Notes under the pieces: model-generated | What the model was told of the DNA's origin: nothing | The model's database searches: none | The model's input: only the letters and a program-made list of their open reading frames with translations | Shown here: positions 8,229 to 14,458 of the stretch, piece by piece | Layout: every line of letters begins with the position of its first letter | Position numbering within the stretch: the stretch's first letter is position 1 | Source of the DNA: a virus | Lineage: Duplodnaviria; Heunggongvirae; Uroviricota; Caudoviricetes | IMG/VR virus record: IMGVR_UViG_2579778784_000007 | Coordinates: 1 to 43,367 of that record | Length of the DNA: 43,367 bases | Reading direction: 5' to 3' (one strand) | Program-made: the position numbers and the translations under genes

Positions 8229-8699
8229 CTAATAAAATACCCAATTTTCTGTTTCTTGGTTGTGCCCAAAGTTATATTCAATATCTGGTGTTGATGTATC
8301 AATATTCTTCATCCCATCAACAAGAGTTGATACAACAGCCAAATCTTGTTTGATTCTCATTAAATGGTATTTCTTCCGGCGCAATAAACTTTCAATGGCA
8401 AGTTTCTTCGTTGGGAATGCAAAAGATCTTTCTGCATTTTTTGCCACTTTCTTAATTGCATATCTATTTCTCTTTTGTTTCCATTCCTGTAACCACTGAT
8501 TTGGTGCTGGTTTAAAATTAACAATCCAATGCGCAGGAACCAACCATGCATAATGCTCTGTCTGATGAAAAGCTATATATTGAAGTGCGAATATTTTGAT
8601 CCCATCTTCTTCAACTGTCGCCTGGAATCTCCAGAAAACAGGCATTCCATCATGTTCAGTTTCTGATTCAGGAAAAGGTACGCTCCATGATTTTGTCAT
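8229..8699 (-). CDS. Hypothetical protein (156 aa), AT-rich accessory gene coupled to N
   Basis: ORF starts 8 nt after the N stop with GAGGTG SD; visibly AT-rich compared with neighbours; no recognisable domain; occupies the ral/sieB region of the lambda map. Confidence 0.6.
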   Translation of the reverse strand: MTKSWSVPFPESETEHDGMPVFWRFQATVEEDGIKIFALQYIAFHQTEHYAWLVPAHWIVNFKPAPNQWLQEWKQKRNRYAIKKVAKNAERSFAFPTKKLAIESLLRRKKYHLMRIKQDLAVVSTLVDGMKNIDTSTPDIEYNFGHNQETENWVFY

Positions 8700-8707
8700 A
8701 TCTCACC

Positions 8708-9034
8708 TCAAATAAGTGGTTTGCTGCCTAATTTCATTTTCTGGCGACCAACACAAGTCACACCCATTTCACTGCGTGGCTTGCTGTACCATGTGCGCTG
8801 ATTCTTGCGCTCAATACGTTGCAGGTTGCTTTCAATCTGTTCGTGGTATTCAGCCAGCACCGTGAGGTCTATCGGATTCAGTGCGCTTTCTACTCGTGAT
8901 TTCGGTTTGCGATTCAGCGAGAGAATAGGGCGGTTAACTGGTTTTGCGCTTACCCCAACCAACAGGGGATTTGCTGCTTTCCATTGAGCCTGTTTCTCTG
9001 CGCGACGTTCGCGGCGGCGTGTTTGTGCATCCAT
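8708..9034 (-). CDS. N: Antitermination protein N
   Basis: MDAQTRRRERRAEKQAQWKAANPLLVGVSAKPVNRPILSLNRKPKSRVESALNPIDLTVLAEYH... matches lambda N including the arginine-rich boxB-binding motif; AGGAG SD. Confidence 0.93.
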   Translation of the reverse strand: MDAQTRRRERRAEKQAQWKAANPLLVGVSAKPVNRPILSLNRKPKSRVESALNPIDLTVLAEYHEQIESNLQRIERKNQRTWYSKPRSEMGVTCVGRQKMKLGSKPLI

Positions 9035-9232
9035 CTGGATTCTCCTGTCAGTTAGCTTTGGTGATTGGATGGCCGGCGCTGAACCCCGGCTTACTGGTTA
9101 GAGCGCCCGCACTACCAGTGACGCTGTCTTGAGGCGCAGATTGGTTACTGCTTGCCATGAGCGCTGTTTATACATTGGTCGAGCATCAGCCTGCTCATTC
9201 ATCCAATCCCAAAGCCTTCTGCTTTGAATGCT

Positions 9233-9263
9233 GCCCTTCTTCAGGGCTAAATTTTTAAGAGCC
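9233..9263 (-). promoter_or_regulatory. nutL: nutL (boxA + boxB) N-utilisation site
   Basis: On minus strand: boxA GCTCTTAAAAA and boxB hairpin AGCCCTGAAGAAGGGCA, as in lambda nutL, between pL and N. Confidence 0.8.
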
Positions 9264-9303
9264 TCACCTTCAATGGTGGTCAGTGCGTCCTGCTGATGGC
9301 TAA

Positions 9304-9332
9304 ATAGTACGATTTGTACTTTATCGAGTCAA
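9304..9332 (-). promoter_or_regulatory. pL promoter with overlapping operator (oL)
   Basis: On minus strand: -35 TTGACT, 17-nt spacer, -10 TACTAT; palindrome AGTAC-N5-GTACT (plus 9306..9320) overlaps spacer and -10; the downstream leader resembles the lambda pL leader (ATCAGCAGGACGCACTGACCACC). Confidence 0.6.
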
Positions 9333-9396
9333 TACAAAATGTTCTAAATATAATTAGTTTTTTATAACGCTTTGTATTTAATGGGTTTATATTTTG

Positions 9397-9425
9397 GAAA
9401 AAGAAAACCCGGCGCTGAGGCCGGG
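9397..9425 (-). terminator. Intrinsic terminator after the cI-operon accessory gene (tIMM-like)
   Basis: Minus strand CCCGGC-ctcagc-GCCGGG perfect 6-bp stem followed by TTTTCTTTTT, 12 nt after the stop of the 348-aa gene. Confidence 0.65.
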
Positions 9426-9436
9426 TTTGGAGTGCA

Positions 9437-10483
9437 TCACTCTGGTTCGCTGGGGAATATATTTATCAATTGCCCTGTTGAAATGTGCCCATTTTCTACA
9501 ACCTCTAGATATGAAATTTCAACAGTTGATTCTTTGGCTACAGCATTCAAAAACTCAAGAAGCTCATCAGTAGATGTTATGTCGGCTGAGGTTTTTATGG
9601 TGAAAGATTCACCATTTGAAACCCTTATGACGTCAATATTTATGTCCTGATTTGTTTCTCCCGAGCGACGAACGCCCGTGACATAAAAGTTATCTCTTCT
9701 AGTTTCCTTTTTTCGATCAATTGATTGTCTTTGGTTTAAGGTATTCAACTGTTCTCTATTTACCACTCTCTGACCAATTGTTACCCTCTCAACTGACGAG
9801 TCTTGAGCAAGCTTTTTAAGCAACTTGCTTTTACCATCCTCGCCGTGAGCCAGAACCTCTCTGCTAATGTTTGTTTGACCGCTAATCAACAACTTGAGCA
9901 CATTGTCTTGTGCTTCGTTTACCGCTTTGGTGCTTTTTTCCACCAATTGCACCTGAGAATCTTGGTCATGTCGCTGTGTTTCGTAGTACTCATTGATCCA
10001 CTTATAGCCTACCGTGCTGGCAGCTAAGACGATAGCGGCGACGGCGCATAGTGCTTGCCTTCCTGTCATTTTGCCTATCGCTTGAGTAAACACTGTCACC
10101 ACTCCGTTTACAATCGGATCTGAGTCACCATCCGCTTGGCTTGAGCCTTCGCTTATTCGGTAGACAATATCCAGCAAACCTTTCTCTGCATCTTTTAGCT
10201 TCTGCCGATTATGAGTGCTGTGACTGACTACCGTAAATGCTTTTTGTATTTCATGCGTAAGCTCTGCCATACCAAAAAGCATTGACGCAGTCAATGAAGA
10301 ATTATATCTATTTGGATCGCCTTTTACATTAATATTGATCTTTGGCCATCCACTGAAAACTACGTTAGGGAATGTGAAGTCGCTTGAGTCGATGTCCTTC
10401 CTTCCGAGCATTTCTGTTACAAAAGATACAAAGTCGTCTTCTGACTTGATAACATATTGCGCAGGTTGATCAATCGCTGACAT
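9437..10483 (-). CDS. Unknown 348-aa protein in the rexA/rexB position downstream of cI (candidate prophage defence/exclusion gene)
   Basis: Starts 25 nt after the cI stop with AAGGA SD, same strand, followed by a strong terminator; central hydrophobic stretch ALCAVAAIVLAASTVGYKWI (about residues 143..162); appears AT-rich; no recognisable motif. Confidence 0.75.
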   Translation of the reverse strand: MSAIDQPAQYVIKSEDDFVSFVTEMLGRKDIDSSDFTFPNVVFSGWPKININVKGDPNRYNSSLTASMLFGMAELTHEIQKAFTVVSHSTHNRQKLKDAEKGLLDIVYRISEGSSQADGDSDPIVNGVVTVFTQAIGKMTGRQALCAVAAIVLAASTVGYKWINEYYETQRHDQDSQVQLVEKSTKAVNEAQDNVLKLLISGQTNISREVLAHGEDGKSKLLKKLAQDSSVERVTIGQRVVNREQLNTLNQRQSIDRKKETRRDNFYVTGVRRSGETNQDINIDVIRVSNGESFTIKTSADITSTDELLEFLNAVAKESTVEISYLEVVENGHISTGQLINIFPSEPE

Positions 10484-10508
10484 TCTTAATCCTTAACATC
10501 CATTCCTA

Positions 10509-11168
10509 TCACCCAAACGTCTCTTCTGGCCACTGGCTGGCGATAACTTTCCCTACAACGGAACAGCTATCATTGCATGGGATCATTGGATATTGCGGGT
10601 TTAGTGGTTGTAGGAACACCTGACCGCTATCCCTGATCAGTTTCTTGAAGGTAAACTCGTCACCACCAAGTCTGGCTATGCAGAAATCACCTGGCTCAAC
10701 AGCCTGCTCAGGGTCAACGAGAATTAACATCCCGTCAGGAAAGCTTGGCTTGGATCCTGTTGGTGCGGTCATGGAATTACCTTCAACTTCAAGCCAGAAC
10801 GCACAATCACTAGCTTTTTTGGTTGTGCTGACCCATCTCTCCGCATCACCTTTGGTAAAGGTTCTAAGCTCAGGCGAGAACATCCCGGCCTGAACATGAG
10901 AAAAAACAGGGTACTCATATTGTTTTTTAACGGGGGCAGATGAGTATTCGCCAACAGGTGAAAATGTACCGTCGTGGTTGAATGAGACGTTATCAATACC
11001 AAGGTATTTAAACACCACACCAATCTCGTCAAGAGATGGATGACGAGATCCGCGCAACCAGTGACCAATTCCACCCTGCGTCATACCAAGCTCTTCAGCT
11101 AACTTCTCTTGAGTTATGCCGAGCTCTTTCATTCTGGATCTAGCCAGTTCATACCATTTCATTTTCAT
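10509..11168 (-). CDS. cI: cI repressor (hybrid: non-lambda N-terminal HTH domain + lambda-like C-terminal S24 autopeptidase/dimerisation domain)
   Basis: C-terminal ~130 aa ([39 protein letters not shown]...[12 protein letters not shown]...FTFKKLIRD...) nearly match lambda CI as I recall it; the N-terminal ~80 aa are a different HTH_XRE domain. ORF-track start at 11210 is TTG; first ATG is 11168, and a better-spaced ATG lies at 11162. Confidence 0.9.
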
Positions 11169-11224
11169 ACCCTTATTATTACGCTCTGTACTAAAACCAT
11201 CCATGCACAAGATGTATTTTTTGT

Positions 11225-11253
11225 TTGCATTCTAAAAGTACATATCGTATTAT
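11225..11253 (+). promoter_or_regulatory. pR promoter with overlapping operator (oR)
   Basis: -35 TTGCAT (11225..11230), 17-nt spacer, -10 TATTAT (11248..11253); operator-like AGTACATATCGTATT (11238..11252) resembles the oL palindrome AGTACAAATCGTACT. Confidence 0.55.
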
Positions 11254-11279
11254 TGTTTCATGGTTACTATGGAGGGCAT

Positions 11280-11495
11280 ATGAGCAACCTACGAAAATAT
11301 CGAGAGTCACTGAATATCTCTCAAACAACACTTGCTAAGGCAGTTGGATGCACACAGGGAGCTATCGGACATTGGGAATCTGGTCGTCGCTTCCCAGACC
11401 TTAAAACATGCCGTGCTCTTGTTGAGTGCCTAAACAAGTTAGGCGCAAAAGTCAGTCTTGATGACGTGTTCCCGCCGGAACACAAAGCCGCTTAA
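11280..11495 (+). CDS. cro: Cro-like repressor (HTH_XRE)
   Basis: 71 aa from ATG at 11280 with GGAGGG SD; divergent from cI; recognition-helix region TQGAIGHW closely resembles the cI N-domain TQGGIGHW, consistent with shared operators. Confidence 0.8.
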   Translation: MSNLRKYRESLNISQTTLAKAVGCTQGAIGHWESGRRFPDLKTCRALVECLNKLGAKVSLDDVFPPEHKAA

Positions 11496-11503
11496 GACAT
11501 TCC

Positions 11504-11535
11504 CGCTCTTACACATCCCAGCCCTGAAAAAGGGC
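11504..11535 (+). promoter_or_regulatory. nutR: nutR (boxA CGCTCTTA + boxB GCCCTGAAAAAGGGC)
   Basis: CGCTCTTACACATCCCAGCCCTGAAAAAGGGC, essentially the lambda nutR sequence, between cro and cII. Confidence 0.85.
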
Positions 11536-11614
11536 ATCAAATTAAACCACACCTATGGTGTATGCATTTATTTGCATACATTCAATCAATTGTTATCTAA
11601 GGAAATACTTACAT

Positions 11615-11893
11615 ATGCAACTTACAAGTACTCGCAAGAAAGCGAATGCAATTACAAGCAACATCCTGAATCGAATTGCTGTACGTGGTCAGCGAAAGGT
11701 TGCTGACGCGTTAGGAATTAATGAATCGCAAATTTCGCGATGGAAAGACAGCTTCATCCCAAAAATGGGAATGCTTCTGGCTGTTCTTGAATGGGGTGTT
11801 GAAGACGAGGAGTTGGCGGAACTGGCTAAGAAAGTAGCCAGAATGCTGACAAAAGAAAAAGCCCCGAAGAACGGCGAATTCTTCGAGGCCTGA
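11615..11893 (+). CDS. cII: cII transcriptional activator
   Basis: 92 aa from ATG at 11615; SQISRWK...MLLAVLEWGV motif matches lambda CII; the leader resembles the lambda cII leader. Confidence 0.85.
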   Translation: MQLTSTRKKANAITSNILNRIAVRGQRKVADALGINESQISRWKDSFIPKMGMLLAVLEWGVEDEELAELAKKVARMLTKEKAPKNGEFFEA

Positions 11894-11927
11894 TGTAGAA
11901 AGACTGGATCAATCCACAGGAGTAATT

Positions 11928-12089
11928 ATGACAAAACGTCGTAAGAAATACCAGGAAAAAGAAGAGATTCGACACCCTGATTCACCTGAGGGATTAGTGG
12001 TAGCCGCAGCAAATAACAGGGCGTTCGCAGAGCGCCTTGTTGGTGTTTACAGACTAGCCAAAGCAGGAGTGAAACATGGGCGTCGTTAA
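11928..12089 (+). CDS. Small hypothetical protein (53 aa)
   Basis: Not in ORF track; ATG at 11928 with GGAG SD; basic N-terminus MTKRRKKYQEKEE.... Confidence 0.35.
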   Translation: MTKRRKKYQEKEEIRHPDSPEGLVVAAANNRAFAERLVGVYRLAKAGVKHGRR

Positions 12090-12138
12090 GTTAGCTGATT
12101 ACAGGCATAACCCTGTACAACATCAGGAGGCATCCAGT

Positions 12139-13032
12139 ATGGGGTATGTCTCTATACACCGCCAGTTTATGGACAGCAGGCTCTATAAGGACTCTCAGGC
12201 AGTACATCTTTGGCTTCACTTAATCCTCAAGGCTAATCACGAATCTACTGTCGTCAATACGGATATCGGTCCGATAACTGTTGATCGCGGTCAGATGATA
12301 ACTGGACGCCCGTCGCTGGTCAGAGAAACATTCATCCCCGACAACAAAGTTAGGAGCTTATTACGGACTTTTGAGTCGAAAGGGATGCTTAATATTTGCT
12401 CGATTGGGAAGAAATTTAGCCTGTTTACAATCGTTAAATATGACGATTTTCAGGCAAAAAATTGTCCAACGGTTGTCCAACGGTTGTCCAACGCAAACAC
12501 CAGTAATGGCGCGGCTCTCAGCGGAGATTGTCCAACGGTTGTCCAACGGTTGTCCAACGCAAACACCAGTAATGGCGCGGCTCTCAGCGGAGATTGTCCA
12601 ACGGTTGTCCAACGGTTGTCCATAAACAATAATATAAATAATATCTCTAATACTGACGTATTAGAGAGTGCCACAGCAGACAAAAAGTCTGACAAGAAAA
12701 AACCTTCCGTCAGCTGTCAGGATGTTGTCGATGCTTACCACGAAATCCTTCCTGAAGCGCCAAGAATCCGCGCACTGAATGACAAGCGTAAAAACCAGAT
12801 CCGAACGTTCTGGCGCAAAGCCGGAGTGATAACCCGCCAGCTTGACGGGCATGGGTTCACGATGCAGGACTGGAGAAATTATTTGAGCTACGTTGGCGAA
12901 AATTGCCGATGGATGTTCGAAGAGCGCCCAAACCATCAACGCGGAACCGTCTGGCACAAAAAGGGATTTGATTTCCTGCTTAACGACAATACCTACCTGA
13001 AAGTTCGTGAGGGTGAACACGATGACCGATAA
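12139..13032 (+). CDS. Replication initiator / replisome organiser (O-like, P22 gene 18 type) containing origin iterons
   Basis: Start chosen at ATG 12139 (AGGAGG SD, 8-nt spacing); N-terminal HTH-like domain, an iteron-encoded 22-aa tandem repeat, conserved C-terminal domain; immediately followed by a DnaB-like helicase. Confidence 0.72.
   Translation: MGYVSIHRQFMDSRLYKDSQAVHLWLHLILKANHESTVVNTDIGPITVDRGQMITGRPSLVRETFIPDNKVRSLLRTFESKGMLNICSIGKKFSLFTIVKYDDFQAKNCPTVVQRLSNANTSNGAALSGDCPTVVQRLSNANTSNGAALSGDCPTVVQRLSINNNINNISNTDVLESATADKKSDKKKPSVSCQDVVDAYHEILPEAPRIRALNDKRKNQIRTFWRKAGVITRQLDGHGFTMQDWRNYLSYVGENCRWMFEERPNHQRGTVWHKKGFDFLLNDNTYLKVREGEHDDR
12472..12625 (+). repeat. ori: Origin-like iteron array: 11-bp unit TTGTCCAACGG in a 66-bp higher-order tandem repeat, followed by an AT-rich stretch
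   Basis: Read directly: three 11-bp units + 33-bp spacer, repeated twice and partially a third time; adjacent AT-rich segment 12622..12670; embedded within the initiator gene as in lambda ori. Confidence 0.7.
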
Positions 13033-14458
13033 TTTTTATGCGCCGCCCCATAGCATCGAGGCAGAGCAGGCGGTGATTGGTGGATTGCTTCTGGATGATG
13101 ACAGCAGTGAGCGCGTCCGGAAAGTTCTGGCGATGCTGAAGCCTGATTCATTTTACAGCCGACCACACAAAATCCTTTTCGAAGAAATAACCAGAATGCA
13201 CCGGGAACAAAAGCCAGTAGATGGCCTGACGCTTTTCGATGAACTGGAGCGTAAATCGTTAACGGCGTCTGTTGGCGGTTTTGCTTATATCGCTGAGATC
13301 GCAAAGAACACGCCAAGCGCAGCAAACATCGTTGCCTATGCAATGCAGGTTCGTGAAACCGCAATGGAACGCTACGCCATCAACCGCATGACTGAAGCGA
13401 CGGAATTGCTCTATTCCCGCAACGGAATGACTGCAACGCAGAAGTACGAAGCTATTCAGGCGATTTTCACGCAACTGACAGACCATGCAAAAACCGGATC
13501 GCGTCGCGGCCTTCGCTCATTTGGTGAGGTCATGGAAGACTGGGTTAGCGACCTTGAGAAGCGATTTGACCCGTCAGGCGAACAACGAGGAATGAGCACG
13601 GGGATCCCATCGCTGGACAGGATGCTGTCACCGAAAGGTCTGGTGAAAGGCTCTCTGTTTGTCATTGGCGCTCGCCCTAAGATGGGGAAAACGACGCTAT
13701 ACAGCCAGATGGCAATCAACTGTGCAGTGCATGAGAAAAAGCCTGCTCTGATGTTCAGCCTTGAAATGCCAGGTGACCAGATACTGGAAAAACTGGTAGG
13801 GCAGAAGTCTGGTGTTAACCCGAATATTTTTTACCTTCCGGCGACAAATGACGCTGATGACGGCTATCAGGGTGATTACGATGGTGACTTCAACAGGGCG
13901 ATCGAAACAGCCAATCGCTTGAGTGAAATCGACATGCTTTACATCGACGACACGCCGGGATTATCTCTGGCTCAAATCGTCAGCGAAAGCCGTCGAATCA
14001 AGCGAGAAAAAGGATGTGTTGGCATGATTCTGGTCGATTACCTGACACTAATGACTGCTGAGAAGGCCGATCGCAACGACCTTGCTTACGGCATGATCAC
14101 CAAAGGACTGAAGAACCTTGCCAAAGAGCTTGATTGCGTTGTTGTGCTTCTGACACAGCTTAACCGCGCACTGGAAAGCCGAACCAATAAACGCCCATTA
14201 CCAAGTGACTCACGAGATACAGGGCAGATTGAACAGGATTGCGATTATTGGGTGGGGATCCATCGTGAAGGTGCTTTTGATGACAGTGTTCCTCCTGGTG
14301 AAACCGAACTAATCCTTCGTCTCAATCGTCATGGCAATACCGGCACGGTGTATTGCATTCAGGCAAATGGCGCTATTTATGACACAGACCAACAGTCTGC
14401 TGAAATGCGCCGACGTGAACGAGAGGAACCGCAGTCCAAGAAGAAAGGAGGATTCTGA
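13022..14458 (+). CDS. DnaB-family replicative helicase (P22 gene 12 type)
   Basis: 478 aa from ATG 13022; N-terminal DnaB-like domain (IEAEQAVIGGLL), Walker A GARPKMGKTT, Walker B region ILVDYLTLM. Confidence 0.85.
   Translation: MTDNFYAPPHSIEAEQAVIGGLLLDDDSSERVRKVLAMLKPDSFYSRPHKILFEEITRMHREQKPVDGLTLFDELERKSLTASVGGFAYIAEIAKNTPSAANIVAYAMQVRETAMERYAINRMTEATELLYSRNGMTATQKYEAIQAIFTQLTDHAKTGSRRGLRSFGEVMEDWVSDLEKRFDPSGEQRGMSTGIPSLDRMLSPKGLVKGSLFVIGARPKMGKTTLYSQMAINCAVHEKKPALMFSLEMPGDQILEKLVGQKSGVNPNIFYLPATNDADDGYQGDYDGDFNRAIETANRLSEIDMLYIDDTPGLSLAQIVSESRRIKREKGCVGMILVDYLTLMTAEKADRNDLAYGMITKGLKNLAKELDCVVVLLTQLNRALESRTNKRPLPSDSRDTGQIEQDCDYWVGIHREGAFDDSVPPGETELILRLNRHGNTGTVYCIQANGAIYDTDQQSAEMRRREREEPQSKKKGGF

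Follow-up and report, generated by a model that had tools for sequence, protein, structure and literature searches.

A lambdoid immunity module, very probably of the VT2-Sakai/Stx2-II type, whose repressor joins a non-lambda DNA-binding domain to a lambda-type C-domain

Introduction

Which repressor specificity governs a lambdoid locus whose cI gene is nearly that of lambda in its C-terminal part only, and did the hybrid arise in the genome in which it is found? The question is raised by a stretch of 43,367 nucleotides from a virus of the Caudoviricetes (IMG/VR record IMGVR_UViG_2579778784_000007), hereafter called the window. The initial annotation proposed that a different DNA-binding domain is fused to the lambda-like C-domain, that matching non-lambda operators lie at pL and pR, and that domain swapping created a distinct immunity specificity.

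Positions 9299-11495 of the window in all likelihood hold the full immunity module of a lambdoid phage, of the VT2-Sakai / Stx2-II / Stx1-converting-phage type; the surrounding DNA is that of a P22-like prophage whose N-nutL ... nutR-cII-leader backbone is lambda-like. The lysis/lysogeny switch is intact, and the module is an ordinary one whose type is already described in Shiga-toxin phages. Both the module and the hybrid nature of its repressor are already published and annotated, and are not new. The type is called 'CI2c' / 'cro4' by Smith et al. 2012 (PMC3430580), who noted a lambda C-terminus with a different N-terminus in the CI2c repressor, and its CI belongs to 'Clade I', 61% identical to lambda CI, in a 2022 BMC Genomics survey (PMC8951638).

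Results

Repressor and Cro

The features of the locus are listed in Table 1. The cI product is a LexA/CI-type (Peptidase S24) repressor, with an HTH_3 domain, a C-terminal Peptidase_S24 domain, an Ala-Gly site and a Ser/Lys dyad. Its last 136 residues (YEYPVF to the end) are identical to lambda CI at 134 positions (98.5%), the two changes being S139C and E217D in mature lambda numbering, and the early description of some 130 C-terminal residues as nearly lambda CI is accurate. The sequences QAG/MF, GNSMT and FKKL are identical to the contexts of A111-G112, S149 and K192 in lambda, and the Ala-Gly bond and the Ser and Lys residues are retained. At the DNA level, the C-terminal part is about 94% identical to lambda (93.6% over 425 bp at 10495-10919; 25 differences in 414 nt).

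The first 83 or so residues are different. On formal alignment they match the lambda N-domain merely as a remote HTH relative (phmmer E 7e-4 to 1LLI), as expected from the proposal that this domain is not lambda's, and their matches to the DNA-binding domains of 434 and P22 C2 are weak and marginal (E 0.006-0.4). The same domain is 96-100% identical in phi458, a Stx1-converting phage and 2B8, and 95% identical in VT2-Sakai. The whole repressor is identical to that of AP005153 at 212 of 218 residues (97%); the N-domain carries three substitutions relative to the Stx-group repressor, all of them outside the helix TQGGIGHW, which is unchanged.

The initial annotation had seen the same helix signature in Cro. 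The signature TQG(G/A)IGHW is indeed common to both proteins, as TQGGIGHW in cI and TQGAIGHW in Cro, and Cro is paralogous to the cI N-domain (35% identity over 62 residues, E 5e-13). Cro is identical to the 'putative cro' product of AP005153 at 70 of 71 residues (99%), and a BLASTP comparison with lambda Cro gives no match up to an E value of 10.

Table 1. Features of the immunity region and its flanks (window positions).
Feature	Positions	Strand	Basis or remark
N, lambda-like antiterminator gene	8708-9034	-	Pfam N36, E 1.5e-26; intact ORF
N-leader hairpin cassette	9056-9216	-	non-lambda sequence, architecture same as lambda's
nutL (boxB 9233-9247, boxA 9256-9264)	9233-9264	-	boxB identical to lambda, its stem-loop found by a scan; boxA one base changed
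pL, TTGACT-17-TACTAT	9304-9332	-	consensus scan
oL1, TAGTACGATTTGTACTT	9305-9321		overlaps pL spacer and -10; homologous AP005153 position annotated 'putative operator'
oL2, CAATACAAAATGTTCTA	9330-9346		overlaps pL -35; annotated in AP005153
oL3, TATAACGCTTTGTATTT	9363-9379		PWM and conserved offset; annotated in AP005153
Intrinsic terminator ending the cI operon	9405-9428	-	terminator scan; 28/28 nt identical to lambda terminator downstream of rexB
Uncharacterised gene, 348 aa	9437-10483	-	ORF listing; position of lambda rexA-rexB
cI	10509-11168	-	219 aa; intact ORF
cI C-terminal part (hinge, cleavage site, Peptidase_S24 oligomerisation domain), lambda-type	10509-10919	-	Pfam PF00717, E 8.8e-29
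cI N-terminal HTH_3 DNA-binding domain, non-lambda, TQGGIGHW	10920-11168	-	Pfam HTH_3, E 8.3e-11, residues 10-57
oR3, TATTACGCTCTGTACTA	11177-11193		overlaps inferred pRM -10 and spacer; annotated in AP005153
oR2, ATGCACAAGATGTATTT	11203-11219		abuts inferred pRM -35 (11198-11203); annotated in AP005153
pR, TTTGCA-18-TATTAT (or TTGCAT-17-TATTAT)	11224-11253	+	consensus scan
oR1, AAGTACATATCGTATTA	11236-11252		overlaps pR spacer and -10; annotated in AP005153
cro, all-alpha HTH_3 type protein	11280-11495	+	Pfam HTH_3, E 1.4e-12
nutR (boxA 11504-11511, boxB 11521-11535)	11504-11535	+	lambda-like; start of tR1/cII leader
cII, diverged allele	11615-11893	+	Pfam Phage_CII, E 2e-42; 53% aa identity to lambda cII; intact ORF

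Operator sites

Two copies of a palindromic motif had been reported, one at each early promoter. The first, AGTACGATTTGTACT, is at 9306-9320 as given, whereas the second, AGTACATATCGTATT, is at 11237-11251 and not at 11238-11252. Both are real and both overlap the spacer and the -10 element of promoter-like pL and pR found by the consensus scan, but they are not the whole set. Six 17-bp operator-like sites, three in each control region, occupy the places that the lambda operators have with respect to pL, pR and pRM: oL1 and oL2 overlap pL, and oR1 overlaps pR. The promoter pRM was not recovered by the consensus scan and was placed by eye and from the AP005153 annotation. The half-site consensus is (T/A)A(G/A)TAC(A/G), with a core of TAC(A/G)-N3-(T/C)GTA.

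The enrichment and dyad symmetry of the motif, its positional conservation and its overlap with promoters are observed directly. With at most one mismatch, AGTAC-N5-GTACT occurs four times in the window against 0.37 expected, and three of the four are in the two control regions. Position weight matrices (PWMs) were trained on the oL sites alone or the oR sites alone and cross-validated on the other side, because putting all six into one training set would have made the test circular. The site oL1 is the top-scoring one in the window with either matrix. With the oL-trained PWM, the best non-training sites in the 43 kb are oR1, which is the best, and oR3; with the oR-trained PWM, oL1 comes first overall, followed by oL2 and oL3 among the non-training sites.

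Comparison with other loci gives the same picture. The GenBank annotation of AP005153, the basis of our operator comparison with the Stx type, marks six features as 'putative operator' and also pRM and pR elements; their positions map one-to-one onto the sites in the window, and the half-site cores are conserved. In seven phage loci, the six sites recur with spacings that are nearly the same from locus to locus (25 and 33 bp in oL, 26 and 32-33 bp in oR), though the inter-operator spacers differ. In three diverged relatives, whose helices are altered to TQGALSHW, TKGAVSHW and TNGAMGHW, the cI-cro intergenic region is 109-110 bp long. It contains three dyad sites with the core TACA...TGTA and with the offsets kept in two of these relatives, while in the third only the two outer sites are clear.

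The two copies first reported might instead be chance likenesses of AT-rich promoter DNA, with the real operators elsewhere. Such a reading gains something from the bare motif, which is only marginally enriched at two mismatches (15 observed, 9.4 expected), and from oR2, the weakest of the six sites, whose rank of 9 in the window with the oL-trained PWM is a point against the operator model. It is nonetheless very improbable, judging from the excess of near-perfect copies and their concentration in the control regions, from the mutual prediction of the oL and oR sites, from site positions that are kept while the intervening spacers diverge, and from the dyads at the same offsets in the diverged relatives. 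Within the cI-cro spacer, no other repeated dyad was conspicuous. Operators of lambda type (TATCACCGC...GGTGATA) are found nowhere in the window at up to three mismatches, in agreement with the claim that lambda oL/oR sequences have been replaced.

Two further candidates were rejected. An additional PWM match, AAATACAATTGGTTATG, recurs beyond oL3 in the Stx-type loci. It is not an operator of this system: the sequence is lambda-like, stands downstream of rexB in lambda as well, and does not occur in the window. The repressor of Stx phage BAA2326, for which footprints have been published and which is also 61% identical to lambda CI, is not the same protein. Its operators (ATAACTGTGCGTAATG and others) are unrelated to those of the window, and its DNA-binding domain is highly similar to lambda's according to the authors (Chakraborty et al. 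2018).

A literature search found no experiment in which this repressor was bound to these operators and no affinity measurement. The sole EMSAs found on VT2-Sakai operators used lambda CI, which bound weakly (3.7-6.4 uM, as against 0.2-3 uM on lambda's own sites).

Mosaic boundaries and age of the fusion

The boundaries with lambda-like DNA are sharp. One is located at the pL -10 element (~9298/9299), another coincides with the beginning of the cI hinge (10919/10920), and a third follows closely on the cro stop codon (11495/11502). Outside them, nutL, nutR, N and the cII leader are all lambda-like, as had been stated. The stretch proximal to nutL and pL (9208-9298) is 96.7% identical to lambda, nutR with the cII leader (11502-11617) is 99.1% identical, and N is 90.7% identical at the amino acid level and 93.7% at the nucleotide level (8733-9063).

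The statement does not extend to the N leader between nutL and N, where 9064-9207 matches neither lambda nor phi458. The predicted RNA fold of this cassette has a long closing stem (-73.8 kcal/mol, z -5.85), and the lambda N leader has the same fold and the same flanking stem sequences. The cassette is also found upstream of N in phage Gally and is present in 144 E. coli genomes. A search of 8600-11950 against Rfam was negative.

Sharp junctions could point to a recent recombinant of this genome, with a newly created immunity specificity. The distribution of the module makes this extremely unlikely. Dozens of sequenced phages and 776 of 5426 complete E. coli genomes (~1 in 7) carry a module at least 90% identical over the N-domain, oR and cro. 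The passage from the non-lambda N-domain to the lambda-type hinge and C-domain falls at the same point in each of the five cI genes compared. Moreover, when the C-domains from the window, the Stx lineage and lambda are compared in pairs, the distance is about the same each time (92.5-94% nucleotide identity; 6-7.5% differences, almost all synonymous, with 2-3 amino acid changes). The common junction and the near-equal distances indicate that the fusion is older than these lineages. The domain swap is therefore real but is not an event of this genome, the junction being shared with Stx phages and hundreds of E. coli prophages.

The module might also be a decayed, non-functional remnant, as proposed for VT2-Sakai, in which cI is truncated by a stop codon (Smith et al. 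2012, PMC3430580). For the window this is very improbable. Here cI, cro, N and cII are all intact ORFs, and the C-domain differs from lambda by 25 nt but by merely 2-3 amino acids, a pattern expected from purifying selection. In addition, the region is 99.3% identical to that of the window in phi458, an isolated phage that was propagated on E. coli MC1061; it is a prophage called spontaneously induced in the title of its paper.

The gene between cI and oL

The 348-aa gene has no Pfam, PADLOC or PDB match and corresponds to phrog_6191, labelled as function unknown. Its homologues form 56 clusters, all from Enterobacterales; they are cargo genes, present in single copy at other variable positions of prophages. 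In presumably homoimmune phages, the slot between cI and oL is filled by different genes, one of them with an NYN nuclease domain. Since the gene lies between cI and the lambda-identical terminator, it is probably expressed with the repressor in lysogens, presumably by co-transcription with cI.

It is conceivable, though we regard it as doubtful, that the product is a new single-gene superinfection-exclusion or abortive-infection factor. Mixed repressor dimers are a secondary suggestion, put forward just as tentatively: the lambda and VT2-Sakai groups, both of them abundant, have almost identical oligomerisation domains, so such dimers could couple the stability of prophages of the two types in polylysogens.

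Discussion

Proposed mechanism and immunity

We infer repressor binding, cooperativity, pRM activation, cleavage and the immunity phenotype from these features as follows. The repressor dimer would bind the six dyad sites through the non-lambda HTH_3 N-domain with its TQGGIGHW helix. Occupancy of oL1 and oL2 would turn off pL, and that of oR1 and oR2 would turn off pR. The centre of oR2 is at -43 relative to the inferred, leaderless start of pRM, and repressor bound there probably stimulates this promoter, while occupancy of oR3 would turn it off. Cro, as a paralogue of the N-domain with a nearly equal helix signature, is likely to compete for the same six sites.

The lambda-type C-domain would give dimerisation and pairwise cooperativity, possibly with oL-oR looping over 1.9 kb. 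RecA-stimulated self-cleavage, predicted from the 98.5% identity to the lambda C-domain, would take place at Ala94-Gly95.

Because the reading head and the sites are unlike lambda's, heteroimmunity to lambda is predicted for the phage, and homoimmunity with phages of the Stx group. The latter is likely, as far as sequence can tell, for the VT2-Sakai/Stx2-II group, from which the window departs at three N-domain residues and at a few bases of the operators. Taken together, the sharp boundaries, the absence of lambda operators and a Cro unlike lambda Cro support a separate immunity specificity made from exchangeable modules, as proposed in the initial annotation.

The appropriate label for the region is that of a VT2-Sakai/Stx2-II-type immunity module, predicted to be heteroimmune to lambda; the six operators should be marked, and the cI start belongs at the methionine of MKMKW. 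Beyond correct annotation the locus has little import. Its practical relevance is that the induction of several Stx phages is controlled by this immunity type.

Comparison with known systems

The same immunity module is found in the Stx phages VT2-Sakai, Stx2-II, the Stx1-converting phage (AP005153/AP005154), Nil2, 2851, 1717 and YYZ-2008. In this group the six operators are homologous position for position, and the junction with the lambda-type C-domain is the same. The DNA is ~93.5% identical to that of the window, and a few bases are changed at the centres of the operators and beside them. From oR2 to oR1 the distance is 33 bp in the window and 32 bp in the Stx type, and the gene between cI and oL is different. 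The backbone also differs: that of the window has lambda-like N and nut sites and P22-like virion genes, and its closest phage matches include no Stx phage.

Lambda has the same layout, N-nutL-pL/oL ... cI-oR-cro-nutR-cII, with three operators on each side. Measured from the inferred starts of pL, pR and pRM, the sites oL1, oR1, oR2 and oR3 of the window lie within 1-2 bp of where lambda has them. The centre-to-centre spacings are wider (25/33 and 26/33 bp, as against 24/20 and 23/24 in lambda), a point against the model as regards pairwise cooperativity. The N-domain, the operator sequence and the Cro family are different, and rexAB is replaced by the unrelated 348-aa gene. The locus is not of the imm-lambda type, since no lambda-type N-domain, operators or Cro are found in the window.

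In immunity of the 434 and P22 types, one set of dyad operators is read by two paralogous all-alpha HTH proteins, Cro and the N-domain of the repressor. That the imm region can be exchanged as a cassette was shown in classical work with the imm434 and imm21 hybrids of lambda. The window is similar in both respects: its Cro and cI N-domain are homologous with a common helix signature, and the substituted block, from pL/oL to the end of cro, resembles the classical imm substitutions. Unlike the 434 and P22 repressors, the repressor of the window has the C-domain of lambda. One conserved cleavage and oligomerisation domain is found joined to at least three unrelated DNA-binding heads across Enterobacterales, and the present locus is a clean textbook case of modular exchange in lambdoid repressors.

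Organization of the early-control region

The region at 8700-11900 of the window has the canonical lambdoid early-control arrangement, and the sequence alternates between lambda-like and unrelated segments. N, nutL, nutR, and the cII leader are all close to lambda (93.7-99.1% nucleotide identity), as proposed in the initial annotation. The virion genes are P22/HK620/CUS-3-like.

Features of the early-control region and the adjacent replication genes, with the relation of the compared segments to lambda
Feature	Position	Strand	Compared segment and relation to lambda
N	8708-9034	minus	8733-9063, 93.7% nt identity
Structured N leader	between N and nutL		9064-9207, unrelated
nutL	9233-9264		9208-9298 (nutL to pL start), 96.7%
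oL1 (pL)	9305-9321		9299-9399 (operators), unrelated
oL2 (pL)	9330-9346		as oL1
oL3 (pL)	9363-9379		as oL1
Intrinsic terminator	9405-9428	minus	9400-9427, 100%
348-aa ORF	9437-10483	minus	9437-10483, in place of rexAB
cI	10509-11168	minus	10495-10919 (hinge, C-domain), 93.6%; 10920-11501 (N-domain, oR, cro), unrelated
oR3	11177-11193		within 10920-11501
oR2	11203-11219		within 10920-11501
oR1	11236-11252		within 10920-11501
cro	11280-11495	plus	within 10920-11501
nutR and cII leader	11502-11617		11502-11617, 99.1%
cII	11615-11893		53% aa identity
O-like replication initiator	12076-13032	plus	
DnaB-type helicase	13007-14458		

The N leader (9056-9216, minus strand) is a cassette of about 160 nucleotides that is missing from phage phi458 and whose fold is a hairpin with a long stem (−73.8 kcal/mol, z −5.85). 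The hairpin in the lambda N leader is an RNase III site; although the cassette is unrelated to it in sequence, both hairpins have the same long-stemmed form and the same outer stem and flank sequences. The cassette is also found upstream of N in phage Gally, in IME10 and Stx2c phages, and in 144 of 5426 E. coli genomes. The O-like ORF contains a tandem 22-residue repeat, CPTVVQRLSNANTSNGAALSGD, in about 2.5 copies, probably corresponding to an intragenic ori iteron array. The next gene encodes a DnaB-type helicase, in contrast to the P-type loader of lambda.

Repressor and Cro

In the repressor, an HTH_3 domain precedes a Peptidase_S24 domain. From YEYPVF to the C terminus, 134 of 136 residues are identical to lambda CI, whereas the first ~83 residues are at most remotely related to the lambda N-domain, in agreement with the fusion that had been proposed. 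In the C-domain, the Ala-Gly cleavage site is intact, as are the motifs with Ser and Lys. A decayed remnant is a weak explanation of the module. Cro, also an HTH_3 protein, has no detectable similarity to lambda Cro. It shares the helix signature TQG(G/A)IGHW with the cI N-domain (35% identity, E 5e-13), as noticed initially. Cro also matches over its full length a solved 82-residue chain, "lambda repressor-like protein" (entry 28tn, E 2.4e-16), and a close structural template therefore exists for the Cro family.

Between any two of lambda, the Stx lineage, and the window, the C-domains diverge by 6-7.5% at the nucleotide level yet by only 2-3 residues; hence the fusion is old, and the C-domain is under strong purifying selection. 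In proteins with C-domains 77-100% identical to that of the window, the N-domains belong to three or more unrelated families, and a fourth is found on a protein with a more diverged C-domain (71%). The families are the lambda type, the present type with its diverged sub-types, a MKTMHEIIGERIK... type, and a MTEKDIQIAERL... type. In Salmonella, Escherichia, and other enterobacteria, the proteins P0003, P0042, and P0073 have the lambda-type C-domain joined to two or more other, unrelated N-domains. In the E. coli protein P0042, the domain junction is further downstream, so the exchange points are not unique.

Operator-like sites and promoters

Of the two motif copies in the initial annotation, the first stands at 9306-9320 as reported, and the second lies at 11237-11251, one base from the reported position. 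Both copies are real, but the control regions hold six operator-like sites. Per region there are three dyads of 17 bp, whose half-sites follow the consensus (T/A)A(G/A)TAC(A/G). No lambda-type operator is present in the window. Chance is a weak explanation of the motif copies: AGTAC-N5-GTACT with at most one mismatch occurs four times against 0.37 expected, and three of the four copies are inside the control regions. To avoid circularity, half-site PWMs were trained on the sites of one side alone. With the oL-only PWM, oR1 and oR3 score highest of all sites outside the training set across the 43-kb window, and oR2 is weaker (rank 9). With the oR-only PWM, oL1 is first overall, and oL2 and oL3 come next among non-training sites.

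The six sites recur in seven related phage loci at near-constant spacings (oL, 25 + 33 bp; oR, 26 + 32-33 bp), although the DNA between them varies. Three diverged relatives have the recognition helices TQGALSHW, TKGAVSHW, and TNGAMGHW and cI-cro spacers of 109-110 bp. Two of them have three dyads with the same TACA...TGTA core at unchanged offsets; in the third, only the two outer dyads are clear.

The pL promoter is TTGACT-17-TACTAT, in which oL1 overlaps the spacer and −10 and oL2 overlaps the −35. In pR (TTTGCA-18-TATTAT), oR1 covers part of the spacer and −10. pRM was placed by inspection, in agreement with the annotation of the Stx1-converting phage AP005153, at TGGATG (11203-11198) and AATAAT (11180-11175) with a 17-bp spacer. 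We infer that pRM starts at the A of the first cI ATG (11168, MKMKW), giving a leaderless mRNA as in lambda. Database annotations put the cI start 12-14 codons upstream (231-residue proteins, MDG...; window 11169-11210, compared locus L001 3159-3194), an extension that passes through oR3 to oR2. Given such a start, this longer annotation is probably wrong for the lysogenic transcript.

Gene in the rexAB position

The 348-residue ORF lies between cI and the lambda-identical terminator. Its product has no match in Pfam, PADLOC, or PDB and belongs to phrog_6191 (annotated function unknown). All 56 clusters of its homologues are from Enterobacterales, and homologues elsewhere are lone cargo genes in variable prophage positions, beside tail-fibre or int/xis genes. 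In the AlphaFold model (pLDDT 64), a hydrophobic helix occupies the centre and an OB-like barrel the C terminus. The ORF is a candidate for an exclusion or defence function expressed in lysogens.

Phages that share the repressor and operators have differing genes in this slot (compared loci L001 1476-1997, L005 2022-2879, and L006 2063-2914; no gene in L007). The products are a 285-residue protein with an NYN nuclease domain (2B8 and E212), a 283-residue protein (2G7b), and a 173-residue protein (the Stx1-converting phage and VT2-Sakai); Louie has no gene. The oL-oR distance therefore spans about 0.9 to 2.4 kb.

Comparison with known systems

The immunity feature has been described before and is very widespread. 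The region shares 99.3% identity with phi458, and cI-cro shares 93-94% with many coliphages, Stx phages among them; the N-domain/oR/cro block is found at ≥90% identity in 776 of 5426 complete E. coli genomes. A new recombinant specific to this genome is hence a weak reading of the hybrid. Compared with AP005153, 212 of 218 repressor residues and 70 of 71 Cro residues are identical, and its annotated "putative operators", three each at pL and at pR/pRM, and promoter elements map one-to-one onto the window sites. Smith et al. 2012 (PMC3430580) noted that this CI has the C terminus of lambda CI and described its amino terminus as unique, implying different DNA binding. A 2022 BMC Genomics survey (PMC8951638) assigned this CI to Clade I, with 61% identity to lambda CI. 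In EMSAs, the VT2-Sakai operators were combined only with lambda CI, which bound weakly.

The observation of a distinct immunity module is confirmed and its interpretation supported. The best-supported reading, very probably correct, is a bistable switch of the lambda kind in which another head reads the operators; repressor binding, cooperativity, pRM activation, and cleavage would be its steps. From the module, heteroimmunity of the phage to lambda and homoimmunity with the VT2-Sakai group are expected.

The oR2-oR1 centre-to-centre distance (window 11203-11252, L001 3193-3241) is 33 bp in the window, phi458, and Louie, and 32 bp in the Stx1-converting phage, VT2-Sakai, 2B8, 2G7b, and E212, much wider than the 24 bp of lambda. 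The spacings in the window are 25 + 33 bp (oL) and 26 + 33 bp (oR), against 24 + 20 and 23 + 24 bp in lambda. On the inferred pRM, the centres of oR2 and oR3 would be at −43 and −17, compared with −42 and −19 from the lambda coordinates. For oR1 and oL1, the centre lies 16-17 bp upstream of the likely start of pR or pL, respectively, the same as in lambda.
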